Below, one piece after another: positions 14,748 through 63,669 of a stretch of DNA of 64,000 nt. The stretch spans positions 31,124,001-31,188,000 of the forward strand of contig NC_059437.1 of the NCBI RefSeq assembly GCF_021028975.2. Direction: 5' to 3'. Source of the stretch: Sphaerodactylus townsendi. Taxonomy: Eukaryota. Every line of letters starts with the position of its first letter. Within the stretch, counting starts at the first letter, position 1. The translations under genes were made by a program, and so were the position numbers. Under the pieces are notes generated by a model. It saw nothing but the letters and a program-made list of their open reading frames with translations, was not told the DNA's origin and searched no databases.

Positions 14748-14901
14748 NNNNNNNNNNNNNNNNNNNNNNNNNNNNNNNNNNNNNNNNNNNNNNNNNNNNN
14801 NNNNNNNNNNNNNNNNNNNNNNNNNNNNNNNNNNNNNNNNNNNNNNNNNNNNNNNNNNNNNNNNNNNNNNNNNNNNNNNNNNNNNNNNNNNNNNNNNNNN
14901 N
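14748..14901. other. Assembly gap (154 N)
   Basis: Run of N. Confidence 1.
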
Positions 14902-23446: not shown

Positions 23447-24390
23447 TAAGAACATAAGAACATAAGAACAAGCCAGCTGGATCAGACCAAAGTCCATCTA
23501 GTCCAGCTCTCTGCTACTCGCAGTGGCCCACCAGGTGCCTTTGGGAGCTCACATGTAGGATGTGAATGCAATGGCCTTCTGCGGCTGTTGCTCCCGATCA
23601 CCTGGTCTGTTAAGGCATTTGCAATCTCAGATCAAAGAGGATCAAGATTGGTAGCCATAAATCAACTTCTCCTCCATAAATCTGTCCAAGCCCCTTTTAA
23701 AGCTATCCAGGTTAGTGGCCATCACCACCTCCTGTGGCAGCATATTCCAAACACCAATCACACGTTGCGTGAAGAAGTGTTTCCTTTTATTAGTCCTAAT
23801 TCTTCCCCCCAGCATTTTCAATGAATGTCCCCTGGTTCTAGTATTGTGAGAAAGAGAGAAAAATGTCTCTCTGTCAACATTTTCTACCCCATGCATAATT
23901 TTGTAGACTTCAATCATATCCCCCCTCAGCCGCCCCCTCTCCAAACTAAAGAGTCCCAAACGCTGCAGCCTCTCCTCATAGGGAAGGTGCTCCAGTCCCT
24001 CAATCATCCTTGTTGCCCTTCTCTGCACTTTTTCTATCTCCTCAATATCCTTTGAGATGCGGCGACCAGAACTGGACACAGTACTCCAAGTGCGGTCGCA
24101 CCACTGCTTTATATAAGGGCATGACAATCTTTGCAGTTTTATTATCAATTCCTTTTCTAATGATCCCCAGCATAGAGTTTGCCTTTTTCACAGCTGCCAT
24201 GCATTGAGTTGACATTCCCATGGAACTATCAACTAAGACGCCTAATCCCTTTCCTGGTCTGTGACTGATAGCACTGACCCCTGTAGCGTGTATGTGAAGT
24301 TTGGATTTTTTGCCCCTATGTGCATCACTTTACATTTTGCTACATTGAACTGCATTTGCCATTTCTGAGCCCACTCATCTAATTTATCAA
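23447..24390 (-). mobile_element. CR1 LINE, 5'-truncated (ORF2 C-terminus plus 3'UTR)
   Basis: ORF 23642-24148 encodes EKVQRRATRMIEGLEHLPYEERLQRLGLFSLE..RLRGDMIEVYKIM, the typical CR1 ORF2 end. 3' octamer tail (TTCTTATG)n at 23447-23470. A frameshift is present. Confidence 0.93.
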
Positions 24391-32431: not shown

Positions 32432-33571
32432 TCAAGAAACCCACAATGGGTGAGTTTGCAGCCTTCCAGAGTCTCCTTCTCTGTGTTTGGCATCCTTCAG
32501 GGTGTCAGTGTCTTTAATTGAGCTACTTTTGCTTGAGAGGAAACCTTGCCTGTTGCTGTTGAACTGATAAAGTCTTAGCTTAAACAAATGTTGCAATTTG
32601 TCCTGGAACTGGCTGCCAATTAAATAATATAAAAGCGGGTTGATGCAGCTGTTCGCAAATCCCATGGAGATCCCAAATGGCAGGGCTGTGTCAATGGCAG
32701 ATACAATCCAGCATTCGTTGATCACGTGCATCCAGGTCAGGGCATCCAAGAAGGTCAAAACGTGGAACGGGAGCCAACAAATGAAGAAGGCCACAACTAC
32801 AGCGGCTACCACTTTTAACACGCGGTCCCTTTTTTGCTTGTTCTTCCCCAAACCTCTGGCTTTCATCAAGTGTACCCGTATCTGGATGTAGCATGTGGCT
32901 ATGATAGCCATGGGTATCAGGAAACCAAAAGTGTTCTTCATTAAGGCTGTCCCTGCTGACCATTCAGAATATTTCTCATTTGGAAAGGCCATGACACAGG
33001 CAGTCACATCCAAATCTTCAATGTGTTGGGTATCTCGGAAATAGAAGGTGGGCAGAGTGGTCAAAGCAGCCAGACTCCAAACAAGCAGTGCAGTAACAGA
33101 AGCCCGGTGCAACGTCCGTTGCTGAGACTGAAGTGGATGGACAATTGCCTGGTAGCGGTCCATGCTCATGCATGTAATGAAGAAGATGCTTGCAAACATG
33201 GTCAGGCCCAAGACTGAGCTGCAGAGTTTGCACATCATTGAGCCAAACAGCCAATTATATCCATAAGCGTAATAAGTGGCCCAAAATGGCACTGTGACCA
33301 GGGTCAACAAGTCTGCTGTGGCTAAGTTGACAATGTAAATGTTGGCCACAGTCTTTAGATTTTTCTGTTGACACAGAACTAAAATCACTAGGCTGTTTCC
33401 CATCAGTCCAAAGATGAAGAGAATACTGTAGAGTACAGGGATTAGCACAAACTGGTAGCTGGAGAATTGGACAGAGCAGTGGGACCAAGAGGAGACATTG
33501 GTTGGGAATACATCGGGATCTTGAAGCGTCTGTTCCATGGCACTGATAATCGAGTCGTTGCTGGTGTGCAT
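32432..33571 (-). CDS. AGTR2: Type-2 angiotensin II receptor (class A GPCR), 379 aa, single coding exon
   Basis: Seven hydrophobic segments with the motifs GNSLV, LATADL, MSMDRY, CWLPFH and NSCINPLLY. AT2-specific stretches match recalled human AT2: FYFRD, ACVMAFPNEKYSEWSAGTALMKN and FHVLTFLDAL. It lies downstream of PLS3 on the same strand, as in mammals. Confidence 0.96.
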   Translation of the reverse strand: MHTSNDSIISAMEQTLQDPDVFPTNVSSWSHCSVQFSSYQFVLIPVLYSILFIFGLMGNSLVILVLCQQKNLKTVANIYIVNLATADLLTLVTVPFWATYYAYGYNWLFGSMMCKLCSSVLGLTMFASIFFITCMSMDRYQAIVHPLQSQQRTLHRASVTALLVWSLAALTTLPTFYFRDTQHIEDLDVTACVMAFPNEKYSEWSAGTALMKNTFGFLIPMAIIATCYIQIRVHLMKARGLGKNKQKRDRVLKVVAAVVVAFFICWLPFHVLTFLDALTWMHVINECWIVSAIDTALPFGISMGFANSCINPLLYYLIGSQFQDKLQHLFKLRLYQFNSNRQGFLSSKSSSIKDTDTLKDAKHREGDSGRLQTHPLWVS

Positions 33572-35600
33572 GTTGCCAACTGATCGGAAAGTGGCTTTCT
33601 TGAGATCTTTTGGGAAAACCTTTCACCTCACATAGTCCAATTGCTATTTTTTGAGGGAGAAAAGGAAATGCATTAGAACTGTGAACTGTGTGTTTGTGAA
33701 GCATATTCTCATTATTCTCAGTTAACTGATGGGAGAAACTGAAGCTCTAAACTGTCGGAGACTCTAAACTGATCTTTGCATCAAGAGACTGTATACACTC
33801 AACACTGGACATTGTGTTCTGATTACACTTTAGCAATGATATGCAACTGGGTTGTCTTGTTGCTCAGGAAAATCCAGTTGCAAACTGTTAGTCTAGCTGT
33901 AAGATCCAGCAATGCGTGGCTCCAGGCAGAGTCTTGGAGTTCCAGCATTCTGTCAAGCTGTCCATCACAGCTGGTAGAAGCATTTCTGGGGCAAAAATGA
34001 AAGCTTCTCAGTATTGCCTGCACCGCTGTTCATGACTTCAAAATGACTGTATCAAACGACAGTATTTTAGAAAAATTGAAGGCAACCAAGATTATAGAGT
34101 TTCCTTCTCCACATAAATTTGTCTAGCATCCAATCTGCCTAAATTTTACATGCCAGGTGAAGGACATTTTATTTTCCATGGATTTTAGTCAATCTGGCTA
34201 ATTTGATGGATCTGTTAGTTGGATTTTGCTTCTCTCTGTTTCCCCTCTGTTTATTTTTTAGATGTTAGAATAATCTTTATAAGTTTTTTAATGAATTATA
34301 AAATCTTCTAGAAATGCCTTTAATTTGAAGAAGAGAAGAAGAGTTTGGATTTATATCCCCCCTTTCTCTTCTGTACGAGACTCAAAAGGGCTTACAATCT
34401 CCTTGCCCTTCCCCCCTCATAACAAACACCCTGTGAGGTGGGTGTTTGACGTAATTGCACCCTTGCTTTTAGAATTATTTTTTTTTGTAATGTGATTGCT
34501 TCAGATTGTGTATTTTATGGTGATTTGTAATTATTGGTAGTTGCCTTCCAAGCCATGCTGATGAATGCAGGATAAACATATTTTAAAAAATTAAAGTTGC
34601 ATTTATATAAAAATATAATTACTGTTTGTAGTAATACAATTTAGGAACTAATTATAGTAATTTAAATTAATTTTAGTTTTTGTACGTCCAATGTAGGATT
34701 AGCCCTTGTATGGTTAAGCACTGGTATTTATTTTTTTATTAAGAATGAAGGTTCAACAGAGATCTAAAATGTTGGATTTGCTGTCAAGTAGTATATTTCT
34801 TAGTAAACTGGTGATGGATTCTAGAGGAACACTTTTAGATTAGTCAAGGTTTGACATTTCTTTGATTTGATGTGAGACCTCTGTGACAAAGCGTTCCTCT
34901 AACTTTGCTTAACCGCCAATTCACCAAAGAAATGTTATCAAATGTCCAATTTTTTTGCCATGACCAGAATTATACACCCACCCCCCATCCTAGATTGTGT
35001 GGCTATTTGTGTAGAAGTGATCAAGCCACATTTTAATACTATGGTGAAGTCCCCTCCCCGCCACACACACCATGTTGTATTCTGCCCACCAAATAAAAAA
35101 TATTCATTAATTTAAAGAGATGCAAGAGACAGAAGAAGAATCAATTGTTCCATTTGATCATCATGAAGTGATTCTTTGTTATACTGCTAATCATATACAT
35201 ATGTTTCTTTCTTTACATACTGTTAGCACCAAAAGAACCTTCTGTGCAAAACTGTTTATATTAATGTCTGTGTACAAAAAGCACAGCAAAATGTTCATTT
35301 AAGATGAAAATATTTTCAGCCTTTTGCTTTGTTTTTGTAATAAAAAGTGCCAGTATATAGGGTTGCACTGAATTTGACAGATTCTCTCCTCAGGACTTGA
35401 AAGAACCCTGCAAGGTTCTGGCATTTAGTCCTGGTGAGTACCAACATTTAAAAGTCCTTTAAAAAATCAGTTTGAAGCAAGAACCAGAGAAAATATCAGT
35501 TACCTTGGCAATGTTCCAGTCTGAGCGGTGCGCAGACCCAGTTGTGTATTTCCAAGTTCGCTAAAACGCCAGTCTCTGCTTTCCTGTATTACTTTCCACA
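33572..35600 (-). other. AGTR2: Probable AGTR2 5'UTR exon/intron structure
   Basis: Minus-strand pyrimidine tract plus AG (ttccttttctccctcaaaaaatag) gives an exon start at 33643. A candidate donor CCAAG|GTAACT lies at 35504/35503. Mammalian AGTR2 has non-coding 5' exons. The boundaries are inferred. Confidence 0.35.
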
Positions 35601-36775: not shown

Positions 36776-37098
36776 GTGGCGTAGGAGGTTAAGAGCTCGT
36801 GTATCTAATCTGGAAGAACCAGGTTTGATTCCCAGCTCTGCTGCCTGAGCTGTGAAGGCTTATCTGGGGAATTCAGGTTAGCCTGTGCACTCCCACACAC
36901 ACCAGCTGGGTGACCTTGGGCTAGTCACAACTTCTCGGAGCTCTCTCAGCCCCACCTACCTCACAGGGTGTTTGTTGTGAGGGGGGAAGGGCAAGGAGAT
37001 TGTAAGCTCCTTTGAGTCTCCTGCAGGAGATCCAAACTCCTCCTCCTCCTCCTCCTCCTCCTCTTCTTCTTCTTCTTCTTCTTCTTCTTCTTCTTCTG
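36776..37098 (+). mobile_element. Full-length tRNA-derived CORE-type SINE (Squam3-like)
   Basis: A box gtggcgtaggaggttaagagc, B box ggtttgattccc, CORE gggtgaccttgggctagtcac, and a (TCC)n(TTC)n tail. Confidence 0.85.
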
Positions 37099-37261
37099 GA
37101 CATGGTTATCACCAGGCTGTCCCCTGAAAATTATAGCGGGTACAGCTGATGTCAGATTGCCCATTGTGCCCACTGTGGCTTGGGAAATTCCTTGAGAATA
37201 GGAGGAGATGCTTTGGGAGGGTCAGGTTTGTGGAAAGTAGTAGTAGTAGCAGCAGCAGTAG

Positions 37262-37541
37262 TTGTTGTTGTTTGAGGAGTTTGGATTTATACCCAGCCTT
37301 TCTCGAGGCAGCTTACAAACTCCTTTCCCTTCCTCTCCCTACAATAGGCACCTTGTGAGGTAAGTAGGGCTGAGAGAGTTTTGAGAGAACATGACTAACC
37401 AAACGTCACCCAACAGGAATGTAGGACTAGGGAAACCAATCTCGTTCACCAGATAAGAGTTTGCCGCTCATGTGGAAGAGTAGAGAATCAAACCGGTTCT
37501 CCAGATTAGAGTCCACCTGCTCTTAACCACTACATCATGCT
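37262..37541 (-). mobile_element. CORE-type SINE
   Basis: Reverse complement of the same family, tail-to-tail with the 36776 copy. Confidence 0.8.
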
Positions 37542-38439: not shown

Positions 38440-39007
38440 TTTATTTATTACTGTATATATGGTCAAGGGCACAGACTTTCCCGGAGGGGTGTGGTAGGTC
38501 CCTCAGATGTTATGGGGACCACCAGAAAGGGGACTACCAAAGGGCACCACACCAACATCCCTCCAAAGGCCCGGTGGAACAACTCAGTCTTACAGGGCCT
38601 GTGGAACTCACCAAGGTCCCGCAGGGCCCGGACAGCTGGAGGAAGACAGTTCCACCATGCCGGGGCCAGAGCCGTAAGGGCTCCGGCCCAAGTAGAGGCC
38701 AGCTGCATCATTGAGGGGCCGGGGACCACCAGTAAATTGGCCTCCGCCAAGCGCAGAGGCCAAACCAGGACATATGGGGTAAGACGGTCCTGAAGGTACG
38801 AGGGTCCCAGCCTGCGTAAAGCCTTAAAGGTTAGCACCAACACCTTGAAAGTGATTTGGAACTCAATCGGAAGCCAATGCAGGCGGTGCAACAGAGGGCG
38901 AATGTGATCTCTAAAGGCACCCCCTGTGAGCAAACGGGCCAGCGCATGTTGGACCAGCTTCAATTTCTGAATCAGCCGCAAGGGAAGGCTCGCGTAGAGC
39001 GGGTTAC
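38440..39007 (-). mobile_element. L2-clade LINE, 5'-truncated
   Basis: ORF 38463-38981 encodes KLKLVQHALARLLTG..RDHIRPLLHRLHWLPIEFQITFKVLVLTFKAL..LGPSYL...APAWWNCLP, a characteristic L2 ORF2 C-terminus. Confidence 0.88.
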
Positions 39008-39010
39008 AAA

Positions 39011-40298
39011 ACCTTGGTTACTCTTTAAGATACCCTAAGCCTCTTCCTTGTTTATCATATTTGACTTTACAATTTACAGATCTCTGTAACATGTCAACTG
39101 GAAAGCAACTAGGCTGACATTTTGTTTCCGGTCATCATTGTGAGAGGGGGAGGAGAGCTGGGAGAGGAAGGAAAGTTGTCCATGAGGACAAAGATTTGTA
39201 CCAGTGAGGAAAGATGCAACATTTAGTCCCCAGAACGTATTTGGGGCGGGGAGTGCAAAGAGGTTTTTAAAAACTGATTTTTCTCTGATTTCCCACCAAT
39301 CTTATCTAAGTTGTTTCTAAATCAGCAAACCTGCTTCAAACAGCAGATTTTTTCAGGCTTCCACAGAGAAATTAATTCTTGAATGTGGCTTCTCTGGTAT
39401 GGAATCTGCCAAACAGTGCAGTGTTTCACAATGTTCTGGCATGGTTGTCAAATCGTACTCTTGAGTTTAGGAACTCCTTGGCATGCCAAATCTTCAATGT
39501 GGAATCCAGATGCTGGACATACTTGCAGGCTTTTCCTTGCTGTTTTTTAGGGAAATGTGGAAAAGAGACTATTAAGAGGCCTCTTTAAGATATTTCACCA
39601 CTGAGACATTTCAGTTCTATTCAGGATTATTAAGATGCTGCTGTCTTGAAGGTATAACAAGCCATGGCAGCGGGCCATAAATCTCTGCACTGCAGCAAAG
39701 GTACATTCCTTCAATCCTCATTGGACTCAGTCCAGTCCACATATTTCTACTGGAATTGGCCTGAAACAAAGGTGATTTCTCCAGTAGTTTGTAATATTCA
39801 GACCTCAACCCTCTTTTGTTCTCATTTCAAGGGTGTTCGGTAGAAAAATGTCTTCTTGGTTTAGGTAGACTTCTGTATGGTGGTTTCTGCACAGCCCAAA
39901 TATAATGGGCTAAGGAAGCTATTTATTTCGTTTTGGGAAAGAACTTCGCACAGGGCTCTTCCCCAAAATGGGTTCAGTCCGTTATATTTTCCTCAGCCTG
40001 GTTTTTACAAAAATTGCTACACTTGCAATCTTTTTAGAGAAACCAAGGGAGCCACAGCAACTGGACTGTTTGCAATCGCTTCCCAGAGGGGTGAAATTTC
40101 CAATGCAAAGGCAAATGGGAAGTTATTACTGTATATAAGGTCAAGGTCACAGACTTGCTGATACCCTTTGAACCTCATGAAGCATCCCCCACAAACTACC
40201 TTGGTTAATCTTTAAGATGCCCTAAGCCTCTTCCTTGTTTATCATATTTAACTTTACAGTTTACAGATCTCTGTAACATGTGAACTGGAAAGTAACTA
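39011..40298 (+). repeat. ~100-bp direct repeat pair (39011-39111 and 40198-40298)
   Basis: accttggtta(c/a)tctttaagat(a/g)ccctaagcctcttccttgtttatcatattt...actggaaag(c/t)aactag, with about 6 mismatches. Confidence 0.85.
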
Positions 40299-44307: not shown

Positions 44308-45376
44308 GTTCCATGACTTATGGGCCATAGAGTCAGCCCTCCAAAGCAACCTTTACTTGTTTGTTTGTTTTTCATGTAGTTTCTCATATGCAGATATTAA
44401 AAAAGTATTGATACAATAAATCTTAAAATCAGTCCCTAAAAACCACTATTCAGTATTGCTCAATCAGATTCAATGAAATAAATTGCAATAACTGAAAACA
44501 TTACGCAAATCACAGGCCATGATCTATAAAACAGGACAGAGAAGTTTTACAGTGTCACATCTAGTCTTACAGTCTCAGCCACTTTCTCCAGGGAAAGCAA
44601 TCTCTGCAGTCTGGAAACCAGTTGTAATTCTGCGGGAACTCCAGGACCCACCAGGAGGATGGCAACCCTGCCAACTAGCTGCCTTAGCTGAGCCAGAAGC
44701 CAATGCGGATTACAGAAGCAGATCAAGAGCAGGTTAAGGCTCTGAAGTACAAATTTAGATGGCCTCTAGTGAGAGGCAATTAGTTTGGGTAAAGAAAAGT
44801 GCTACTAACTCAATGTCTAGATATGCCCCTTACCTTAGTGAGATAGATCTGCATTATTTTGTATCTCATAATTTCAAGACATCAAAAATACAGTTTCTAA
44901 TACACCAACTACATGTTGGGCTTCCTTCTCCCATCCGTGTAGTAGCAGCCCACACAATCATAGATGCAATATCCCAGACCGTAACTGCCTTATCCAAAGG
45001 AGGAGGGGTACAGCTTTTTCCATTTTTGTGCAGTGGTCTTTCGAGCAGGCACTAGCAATTTTCTCAACCTTCAGGCTCTATTCGAAATCTTCAGTGTCTC
45101 AGTGCAACATATAGCCTGGTTTTTCTAGATGTCTTTACCGTTGCATGGCCCTCTCTGCCCTGAAGTTCTGACTAGCATCCATCCTGGCTCCTCACAACAT
45201 GCTGGATCTCATTTGACTAAGAACTTTATCCCTGCCAGCAGCCATAAGCTCCCTTGAGTTCATTTCCTTTCTGTAAAAAAAACCTTGTCATTCCTCCTGG
45301 GTCCGTCCTCCTTCTGCTGTTTTTCAAAAGAGCTGCACGGCATTTTTGGTGATGCTCTTTAACCTATGCCAAGATC

Positions 45377-46636
45377 ATGCTGTTGCTATTTTTCCTTTCT
45401 CTTTTTGCTGGTCCTCTAGAGTCTGGACTGGACACAAGCCCCTGTGCCTGTCCACCCATGTGTAAATGTTTTTCTGATGCAATTATCTACTGTGGCAGAG
45501 CTGGACTCAGAAGCCTCCCGACAGACATCGTCGCTTCTACCATCTCTCTGAACCTGTCCGATAATTTTTTGCGTATCCTGGCTGCTGATGCCTTTGGCAA
45601 CCTCACTTTTCTGAGCAGCCTCTGGCTGGATCACAACAATCTAACTTTCTTGTACCCAGGTGCATTTAAGTCACTCTACAATCTGAGGGTGCTGTACCTC
45701 AGTAGTAATTCTCGACTGACCTACCTTCATGCCAACACCTTCCAAGGCCTGGACAACCTCGTCAGCTTGGACTTATCCCACTGCAACCTTTTCGAGATCC
45801 ACCCGTTCATATTCTCCCACTTGCCCTCTCTGGAAGTGCTCGACCTGACTGCCAACAACATGCACTACATCCCACAAGCTTTCCGAAGCTTGACGCGTCT
45901 CATGAGGCTGTCTCTGGAGAGGAATCACATCGAAGCCATTGGCAGGGACTCATTGAAGGCCATGAGAGCGCTGAAAGACTTGAATCTCCGCAAGAATCGA
46001 ATCTGGACCATCCATCGTGATGCCTTTCTCAAACTGGACAGGCTCTGCATGTTAAATTTAGGGCACAATCACCTCTCTGATTTGCCTAACCAGCTTTTCA
46101 GTGGATTAGCCCAGCTCAGGACCATACGTCTCGAGGCAAACAGATTCACCAGGATCAACTGCTCCTTTTACGGCCTGCGCAGCCTGAGGAAGCTGTACTT
46201 GAACAACAACCACATCATGTTCATTGCAGAAGCTGCATTCTCACCTTTGAAGGAACTTAGCTTTCTTCACTTAAACAGGAATAACCTGAGCTACCTTTCC
46301 AGCCGCCTGCTCATGGAGCTACCCAAGCTGAGATACGTCTTCTTGTCCCATAACCCCTGGGAGTGTGATTGTGGAATGTTGTGGTTTGCCACCTGGATAC
46401 TGACCTACCAAGGGATGATTGAAGGCATGCACTGCACAATTCCTGAGGTTCGCAACGTGTCGTTGCTGAGCCTCTTTACGAACGACGCCTTAGCCACCTG
46501 CTCGCCTCCATGGGGGGTAATAGAGGAGGATGCCTGTGAAGGGCCACACACAAATGGAGCTTTTCCTTCATCTGCCGCTTCTGGGATAATACTTTGCTTC
46601 CTGTTTACCTTGAAGCTTCAGCTCTCAGCTGTTTAG
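45377..46636 (+). CDS. Nyctalopin-like extracellular leucine-rich repeat protein, 419 aa: signal peptide, LRRNT, 11 LRRs, LRRCT, predicted GPI signal
   Basis: Uninterrupted ORF with a hydrophobic N-terminus (MLLLFFLSLFAG) and LRRNT CACPPMCKC...YC. Eleven LxxLxLxxN repeats are followed by LRRCT NPWECDC...C...C. The tail TNGAFPSSAASGIILCFLFTLKLQLSAV resembles a GPI-addition signal. Motifs parallel recalled human NYX: CGRAGL/CDRAGL, HNNLTFLYPGAFKSL/HNNLSFITPGAFKGL, LTYLHANTF/LRYLHARTF, LDLSHCNLF/LDLAACRLF, ERNHIEAI/ERGRIEAV. Confidence 0.9.
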   Translation: MLLLFFLSLFAGPLESGLDTSPCACPPMCKCFSDAIIYCGRAGLRSLPTDIVASTISLNLSDNFLRILAADAFGNLTFLSSLWLDHNNLTFLYPGAFKSLYNLRVLYLSSNSRLTYLHANTFQGLDNLVSLDLSHCNLFEIHPFIFSHLPSLEVLDLTANNMHYIPQAFRSLTRLMRLSLERNHIEAIGRDSLKAMRALKDLNLRKNRIWTIHRDAFLKLDRLCMLNLGHNHLSDLPNQLFSGLAQLRTIRLEANRFTRINCSFYGLRSLRKLYLNNNHIMFIAEAAFSPLKELSFLHLNRNNLSYLSSRLLMELPKLRYVFLSHNPWECDCGMLWFATWILTYQGMIEGMHCTIPEVRNVSLLSLFTNDALATCSPPWGVIEEDACEGPHTNGAFPSSAASGIILCFLFTLKLQLSAV

Positions 46637-52748: not shown

Positions 52749-57737
<4,989 letters not shown>

Positions 57738-58460
57738 CTAAACAGGCAGGAATAGCACAGTCAGCCAAACTGCAGGGATATTTATTAGCCTTCTGTTTAG
57801 AGCTGATCTTCATTTCTATGTGTCGTCAACAAAGTAACCTCTTCCCAAGGGAGACAATGCAAAGCTAGATCCTGAGGCTTGGGCTTGTATAAACCATTTT
57901 TACAAGGAAAACCCACAACAAAGTGATGTTTCCCCACACTCTTTCCCTGTTATAAATGTGTTCTTATCAAGAGAGATGGTTTTCTTAAAATCAAAGTGTT
58001 TTTATGCTGGCTTTCCATCCTTAACAGACCTTCAAGGTTGCTTATACAAAGGATTAAAAAGCCATATACAATAAAATCTCATAAAGTGAAGATGCACTCA
58101 TGCGAGAATTTTCCATCATTGTGTCCCGTTCTCATATATAGGGGTGAATTTAATAAGAAAGAGCAAACATAAAAGAATTACACGGTGACATTTTCCCAGA
58201 AGATATGATGGCACAGAACTATTCTCAGAGGGCATCCCTATTTGTTTTCAAGATCAACCATTTCAGGAAAGTACTACGGTGCATTTATTTTTAAAAAGTA
58301 TAAAATGATGCATGTGTGGAGAAAGCAAAGAGAATTTTCCTTCTCTCTTTTCCCTATAATATTGGTTCTTGGGTGCATCCAATAAAGTTGATGGGCAGAT
58401 TTAAGGTAGACAAAAGCAAGCATTTCTTGATGCAATAGAGAACTCGCTATCACATGATGT

Positions 58461-58603
58461 NNNNNNNNNNNNNNNNNNNNNNNNNNNNNNNNNNNNNNNN
58501 NNNNNNNNNNNNNNNNNNNNNNNNNNNNNNNNNNNNNNNNNNNNNNNNNNNNNNNNNNNNNNNNNNNNNNNNNNNNNNNNNNNNNNNNNNNNNNNNNNNN
58601 NNN
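58461..58603. other. Assembly gap (143 N)
   Basis: Run of N. Confidence 1.

Positions 58604-63669
<5,066 letters not shown>

Follow-up and report, generated by a model that had tools for sequence, protein, structure and literature searches.

The NYX gene, which encodes nyctalopin and is mutated in CSNB1, lies beside DDX3X and CASK. Human nyctalopin is GPI-anchored and GPI-released, and mouse nyctalopin has a helix (PMC3317652). The protein is located on the dendrites of ON-bipolar cells, and both it and presynaptic LRIT3 are needed to place TRPM1 (PMC13224074). A 2025 SLRP phylogeny recovered a Nyx clade (88.8/93) in which two paralogues, Nyx1 (98.3/99) and Nyx2 (100/100), are sisters (PMC11917481). 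Nyx2 was represented there by five proteins, from the coelacanth, Xenopus tropicalis, Podarcis muralis, chicken and a tinamou, and all five species also have Nyx1; Nyx1 only was recorded in the mouse, wombat, sharks, gar, bichir, teleosts and a caecilian (24 of the 25 Nyx1 rows). The sections of that paper examined give the name and tree position of Nyx2 and contain no locus, anatomy, expression or function. Here, a gene of the gecko Sphaerodactylus townsendi was investigated in a 64-kb stretch of DNA (the window, to which all positions refer), and we found that it is almost certainly the orthologue of Nyx2 and the sister paralogue of nyctalopin. Nyx2 is already known, since its orthogroup was named in PMC11917481 (G3 2025) and the protein is annotated in the S. 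townsendi genome; because gene and name already exist, any claim of discovery falls.

The Nyx2 coding sequence occupies 45377-46636 on the plus strand as a single exon, recognized from its reading frame and orthology. It begins with an ATG at 45377, ends with a TAG at 46636 and encodes 419 aa with zero internal stops. Measured from stop to stop (427 aa), this frame is the longest of the 30 frames of at least 120 aa in the window, followed by AGTR2 (396 aa) and a frame of 223 aa. The AGTR2 frame is an intact single coding exon at 32432-33622 on the minus strand, whose best PDB match is AT2R (395 bits, vs. 266 for AT1R). The 3' exons of PLS3, identified by comparison with human plastin-3, lie at 52752-58460, also on the minus strand and convergent with Nyx2; the last exon is identical to human plastin-3 at 43 of 44 positions and is closer to it than to LCP1. 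Thus, the position between AGTR2 and PLS3 given in the preliminary description, rather than one beside DDX3X and CASK, was confirmed by both neighbours.

Several other properties of the window were recorded. Of three RNA runs of a related species, two gave a low read depth over the AGTR2 frame. A 5.1-kb block of PLS3 exons is repeated at 53417-58460 and 58604-63669, flanking an N gap (58461-58603); the copies share 95.2% identity with 94 gap openings, the second contains frame breaks, and the repeat is probably an assembly artefact (a false duplication). A second N gap is located at 14748-14901. The frames at 23642-24187 and 38463-39017, both on the minus strand, resemble the ends of LINE reverse transcriptases, which we take to be CR1-like and L2-like. 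Short interspersed repeats occur repeatedly, at about 12800, 17000, 19600, 29200 and 36800-37500, and Rfam gave zero matches within the 64-kb window.

The anatomy of the predicted protein can be read along the plus strand. A predicted signal peptide of about residues 1-17 (45377-45427) was recognized by hydropathy and by a Met and hydrophobic run whose position is common to relatives. The LRRNT cap, Cys25-x3-Cys29-x-Cys31-x7-Cys39 (45449-45538), was defined by Pfam and an alignment of 43 sequences, LRR1-11 at residues 55-317 (45539-46327) by repeat layout, alignment and AlphaFold2, and the LRRCT cap at residues 318-375, Cys330-x-Cys332-x20-Cys353-x21-Cys375 (46328-46501), by repeat layout and alignment. 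The alignment also delimits a short stalk of low pLDDT in AlphaFold2 (46502-46552), which carries a fifth invariant cysteine, Cys387. The last part (46553-46636), recognized by pattern only, is a GPI-like signal with the candidate omega site N393, a spacer and a hydrophobic end followed by the stop, leaving no cytoplasmic tail. The hydrophobic termini comprise residues 1-15 and 400-414, and the small-residue triplet N393-G394-A395 stands 26 residues before the C-terminal end; both signals were called by inspection of sequence pattern and hydropathy, and the product is accordingly only a predicted GPI-anchored protein. The ORF product matches LRR_8 in Pfam (E 1e-69). Its 11 full repeats, of 24, 24, 25, 24, 23, 24, 24, 24, 23, 24 and 24 residues, are completed by a cap strand, Cys136 occupies the Asn-ladder place in repeat 4, and sequons are present at N59, N75, N88, N261 and N303. 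AlphaFold2 predicted a regular LRR solenoid (pLDDT 82.9, 250 residues at pLDDT of at least 90), in which stalk residues 356-402 are unmodelled. An intact 419-codon frame with a signal-like N-terminus, cysteine caps, 11 LRRs and a GPI-like tail had been proposed from the start, and the frame and repeat analysis bore it out; the 25-residue repeat 3, the Cys in repeat 4 and the 23-residue repeat 5 are exactly as first noted, and the 23-residue repeat 9 is an addition to that account.

The identity of the gene was investigated by homology searches and phylogeny. The best 80 of 685 matches form one family, mostly labelled 'nyctalopin-like', with E-values of at most 8e-51 and identities of 40-100%; its members come from lizards, turtles, birds, crocodilians, frogs, salamanders and the coelacanth. 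Beyond them, within the best 120 of 685, stand generic LRR proteins of 25-36% identity. Three family members are the Nyx2 accessions of PMC11917481 from coelacanth (XP_014351734.1, P0059), Xenopus (XP_004917450.2, P0031) and Podarcis (XP_028571718.1, P0129); its chicken and tinamou accessions were not found among the matches listed. A quick tree with SH-aLRT support was built from 38 family rows and 11 outgroups, with no Nyx1 and with long-branch warnings for the outgroups. The gecko protein groups with those of other geckos, within a clade that also contains the coelacanth, Xenopus and Podarcis Nyx2 (98 SH-aLRT); the branching of the family approximates the species tree, and six of the family rows group with the skink, birds and toad. 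The outgroups IGFALS, TRIL, CHADL, VASN, TSKU, LRRC32, LRIG and TLR5 fall outside this clade. Such a phylogeny had been proposed in the preliminary description, and the family is indeed one clade apart from the 11 other LRR proteins, in a tree that holds no Nyx1.

The link to nyctalopin itself comes from the published tree of PMC11917481 and from a skate Nyx1 fragment shown there. Compared by eye and without gaps, residues 119-213 of Nyx2 are identical to it at 44 of 95 positions, and the fragment likewise carries a Cys in its repeat 4 and has 23 residues in its repeat 5 (PMC11917481). No full Nyx1 protein was present among the listed matches of the word-based searches or of a profile search, in which 147 of 150 rows were giant multi-LRR proteins. 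An ESM Atlas search with Nyx2 returned generic chordate LRR clusters only, and PDB sequence and fold searches gave generic LRR matches, with no nyctalopin entry among the matches listed.

The taxonomic range of the family is narrower than first suggested. Among the best 80 of 685 matches there was no mammal, snake, caecilian, ray-finned fish or shark label; because the search is word-based and a match requires about three shared 5-mers, the lack of mammal, snake, fish and shark matches is weak evidence of loss. Snake proteins are absent among the matches listed and many lizards are present; for the same reason, loss in snakes is possible but unproven. The gene had been described as a poorly characterised paralogue kept in non-mammalian vertebrates. 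The paralogy with nyctalopin stands, while the range must be restricted to the lobe-finned fish and tetrapods in which the gene was seen. The lack of a functional study also stands, as none of Nyx2 or 'nyctalopin-like' was found in the full-text literature (subscription papers and supplements lay outside its scope), but the implied novelty does not, given the orthogroup name in PMC11917481.

The alignment of 43 Nyx2 sequences revealed strong constraint. Cys136, 262, 330, 332, 353, 375 and 387 are invariant in 43/43 sequences, and the LRRNT residues Cys25, 29, 31 and 39 are kept in every sequence that covers them (39, 42, 42 and 42 of 43, respectively). Conservation is highest in repeats 3-5, where the gecko protein is identical to the coelacanth at 44 of 72 positions (61%) and to chicken at 53 of 72; in the signal region, the corresponding values are 1/22 and 3/21. 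Exposed concave positions of repeats 4-10 are 90-100% conserved across the 43 sequences, with D132, S134, S179, E181, N203, R205, G229, H230, A254, N276 and N277 near-invariant. This is the pattern expected of a selected binding surface, and the concave face may be regarded as a putative one. The nyctalopin cap motifs of PMC3317652 contain nothing that corresponds to Cys262 or Cys387, and we infer that these two form a disulfide bond.

Database models of this family differ in several respects. A record labelled S. townsendi is 99.7% identical to the ORF product over 379 aa. The annotated protein of this genome (P0002) begins at Met28 and lacks the signal peptide. Three other annotated gecko proteins (P0003, P0004 and P0005) likewise begin at Met28 without it, and a further gecko protein (P0145) retains it. 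The signal-coding DNA (45377-45457) is pyrimidine-rich with AG at its end, and in these features it is like a splice acceptor; at 45366, just 5' of the start, there is an ATG in another frame. The idea that the signal peptide is merely an intron pyrimidine tract was rejected, for an in-frame Met and hydrophobic run stand about 23-25 residues ahead of the first cap Cys in lizards, turtles, birds, axolotl and Ascaphus, an equal spacing from lizards to axolotl. Alternative splicing may nevertheless occur in this region. The practical point is that gecko gene models omit the Nyx2 signal peptide. Labels of the orthogroup vary with species (nyctalopin, IGFALS, FLRT1-like, RTN4RL2 and LRRC70), the leatherback record is flagged 'LOW QUALITY PROTEIN', and axolotl is represented by six nearly identical 'nyctalopin-like' proteins (408-412 aa; the P0029 cluster) on contigs of equal length, which may be tandem copies or isoforms. 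The label 'nyctalopin' on Nyx2 in several databases can confuse NYX orthology.

Counterparts of the gecko gene are expressed in the retina or eye of chicken and frog, according to bulk data linked to Nyx2 by name and species. In the chicken atlas, LOC101749694 ('nyctalopin-like', without a high-quality human alignment) belongs to co-expression cluster 13 with NYX, TRPM1 and LRIT3, and embryonic retina is the peak tissue for 259 of the 260 genes of the cluster (PMC6081845). Cluster 13 also contains AANAT, and GPR179 and VSX1 were assigned to other clusters (PMC6081845); it is therefore a general retina cluster and gives no pointer to bipolar cells. In chick retina/RPE, the baseMean of LOC101749694 was 315 and 340, about a third of that of NYX (1081 and 1080), with LRIT3 at 1053 and 1035 and pinopsin at about 1 (PMC10767138). 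In whole eyes of the leopard frog, a transcript matched to Nanorana nyctalopin-like had a baseMean of 54 (NYX 200, TRPM1 172) and was unchanged at metamorphosis (padj 0.41; PMC9238225). All these data are bulk (retina/RPE or whole eye), and the links LOC101749694-XP_015133920 and XM_018556702-XP_018412204.1 (P0030, Nanorana) were drawn from gene name and species rather than from sequence comparison. Three RNA runs of a related species gave depths of 0, 0.3-1.2 and 0 over the bins of the Nyx2 ORF, and the run with signal has depth in 30/30 bins, so that these runs do not demonstrate expression in a gecko. The chicken gene is not mentioned in four small supplement files of a chick retina single-cell atlas (PMC7837701). 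The eye expression suggested at the outset thus agrees with published supplementary tables (PMC6081845, PMC10767138 and PMC9238225), where it had lain unremarked.

By analogy with nyctalopin, we give about even credence to the proposal that Nyx2 is a GPI-anchored retinal synaptic scaffold that works in the same manner, probably in a subset of ON-bipolar cells. In such a mechanism, Nyx2 would be made by retinal neurons, probably some ON-bipolar cells, would be located at the photoreceptor synapse, would bind an LRIT-type LRR protein on the presynaptic side and would help to position a TRPM1-type channel complex. Because the protein has no cytoplasmic part, it could act only as a scaffold or co-receptor; the earlier suggestion of an auxiliary subunit for a TRPM or GPCR complex is plausible. 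Points against a nyctalopin-like role include the caps and repeat 9, in which Nyx2 departs from Nyx1, the moderate support for the node uniting Nyx1 and Nyx2 (88.8/93; PMC11917481) and the cerebellum cluster of one chicken gene model described below. Moreover, the ON pathway of mammals is built without Nyx2, and the core mechanism thus does not depend on it.

The alternative that survives best, though we think it rather unlikely, keeps Nyx2 in the retina and outside the signalplex, as a GPI-anchored adhesion or recognition molecule with its own ligand on photoreceptors, horizontal or OFF cells, glia or RPE. Bulk retina/RPE data cannot separate these cell types, and the Nyx2-specific caps, short repeat 9 and additional Cys262 and Cys387 would suit a separate ligand. 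Chicken nyctalopin-like also varies over the day more strongly than NYX (p-adj 1e-12 and 6e-11 vs. 2e-3; PMC10767138), as do many photoreceptor genes. However, daily variation is seen in 50-58% of all genes of the same retina/RPE set (PMC10767138), so that this rhythm is not diagnostic, and the odd block of repeats 3-5, the most conserved part of Nyx2, is common to Nyx1 and Nyx2. It is improbable that the main role lies in the brain, with Nyx2 as a cerebellar synaptic organiser (e.g., of an mGluR-TRP complex) and the retina as a second site. Its basis is ENSGALG00000042318, an Ensembl model of the same NCBI gene (PMC10767138), which belongs to cluster 11 of the chicken atlas, where cerebellum is the peak tissue for 238 of 279 genes (85%; PMC6081845). 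The RefSeq model of this gene is nevertheless in retina cluster 13 (PMC6081845), and two overlapping gene models can split reads artificially.

A role at pineal or parietal-eye photoreceptor synapses, one of the options first raised, is weaker still and very improbable. The mammals, snakes, caecilians and teleosts, which have no label among the best 80 of 685 family matches, are lineages that lost pinopsin (PMC12836464). But crocodilians keep Nyx2 (P0042 and P0075) with neither pinopsin nor a pineal complex (PMC12836464), and this retention makes a pineal role weak; chick retina/RPE expresses nyctalopin-like where pinopsin is near 1 (PMC10767138), and gar, bichir and sharks have Nyx1 only (PMC11917481), though non-teleost ray-fins keep pinopsin (PMC12836464). 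Finally, the variable database labels and one 'LOW QUALITY' turtle record might suggest that the gene is the true NYX moved by translocation, a copy in decay or a member of another LRR family (IGFALS, FLRT, RTN4RL or LRRC70), but this is hardly credible when Nyx1 and Nyx2 are both recorded for chicken, tinamou, Podarcis, Xenopus and coelacanth (PMC11917481), repeats 3-5 remain conserved to the coelacanth as the signal region does not, and the family is one clade separate from the 11 outgroups (FLRT and RTN4RL were not among the proteins of that tree and were compared with Nyx2 only by fold matches of 24-32% identity).

The vertebrate genome duplications left numerous paralogue pairs shared between the NYX region and the PLS3/AGTR2 region, a pattern into which an ohnologue would fit. 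The parts of PMC8040251 consulted gave no support for such an origin at the Nyx2 locus, and an ohnologue origin of Nyx2 and Nyx1 is at present a lead only. Lamprey proteins are filed under Nyx1 in PMC11917481; the Nyx1/Nyx2 split would then be very old and would need losses in sharks, ray-fins and mammals. The alternative is that Nyx2 is a faster-evolving later duplicate. A bolder hypothesis, which we consider doubtful, is that an ancient genome duplication gave rise to Nyx2 as the twin of nyctalopin, and that in a cone ON-bipolar class, perhaps also in the cerebellum, of amphibians, reptiles and birds it assembles a glutamate-to-TRP synaptic complex of a second kind. In this view, it was lost in mammals and snakes as their retinas simplified, and a Cys262-Cys387 bond would fold the stalk onto the solenoid and alter the geometry of partner binding. 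In any case, Nyx2 has a name but no functional study, has long been under constraint, and is the sister of a gene for human night blindness. If it is truly a second nyctalopin, it would offer a handle on how the cone-rich retinas of birds, reptiles and frogs wire more kinds of ON synapse than those of mammals, and a natural comparison to map the nyctalopin surfaces that bind LRIT3 and TRPM1.

Compared with other known systems, the nearest solved folds to Nyx2 are RTN4R, a GPI-anchored LRR co-receptor, LRRTM2, LINGO1 and IGFALS (Foldseek, 24-32% identity); the likeness is a generic LRR one, and these proteins differ in repeat numbers and caps. The class IV SLRPs (chondroadherin and tsukushi) are secreted, and like Nyx2 they are extracellular LRR proteins with an LRRCT-type cap; they were grouped together with it by PMC11917481, whereas in our quick tree they fall outside the Nyx2 clade. 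Nyctalopin likewise has 11 LRRs between cysteine caps, and its signal peptide and GPI-type end (PMC3317652) are matched by the predicted ones of Nyx2; chicken NYX shares one retina cluster with nyctalopin-like (PMC6081845). Nevertheless, the N-cap is Cx3CxCx7C in Nyx2 and Cx3Cx3CxCx6Cx3C in nyctalopin, and the C-cap is CxCx20Cx21Cx11C rather than CCxCx19Cx23C (PMC3317652), with the CxCx20 spacing in 42/43 Nyx2 sequences and the fifth Cys in addition. Repeat 9 of Nyx2 has 23 residues and the invariant Cys262, in contrast to 24 residues without Cys in skate Nyx1 (PMC11917481). Nyx2 also differs from nyctalopin in its 419 aa with a short stalk and in not being seen in mammals. As for the locus, Nyx2 lies between AGTR2 and PLS3 and nyctalopin beside DDX3X and CASK. 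The Nyx2 of PMC11917481, 'nyctalopin-like' in RefSeq, is the same gene as the gecko ORF, and only the species differs.
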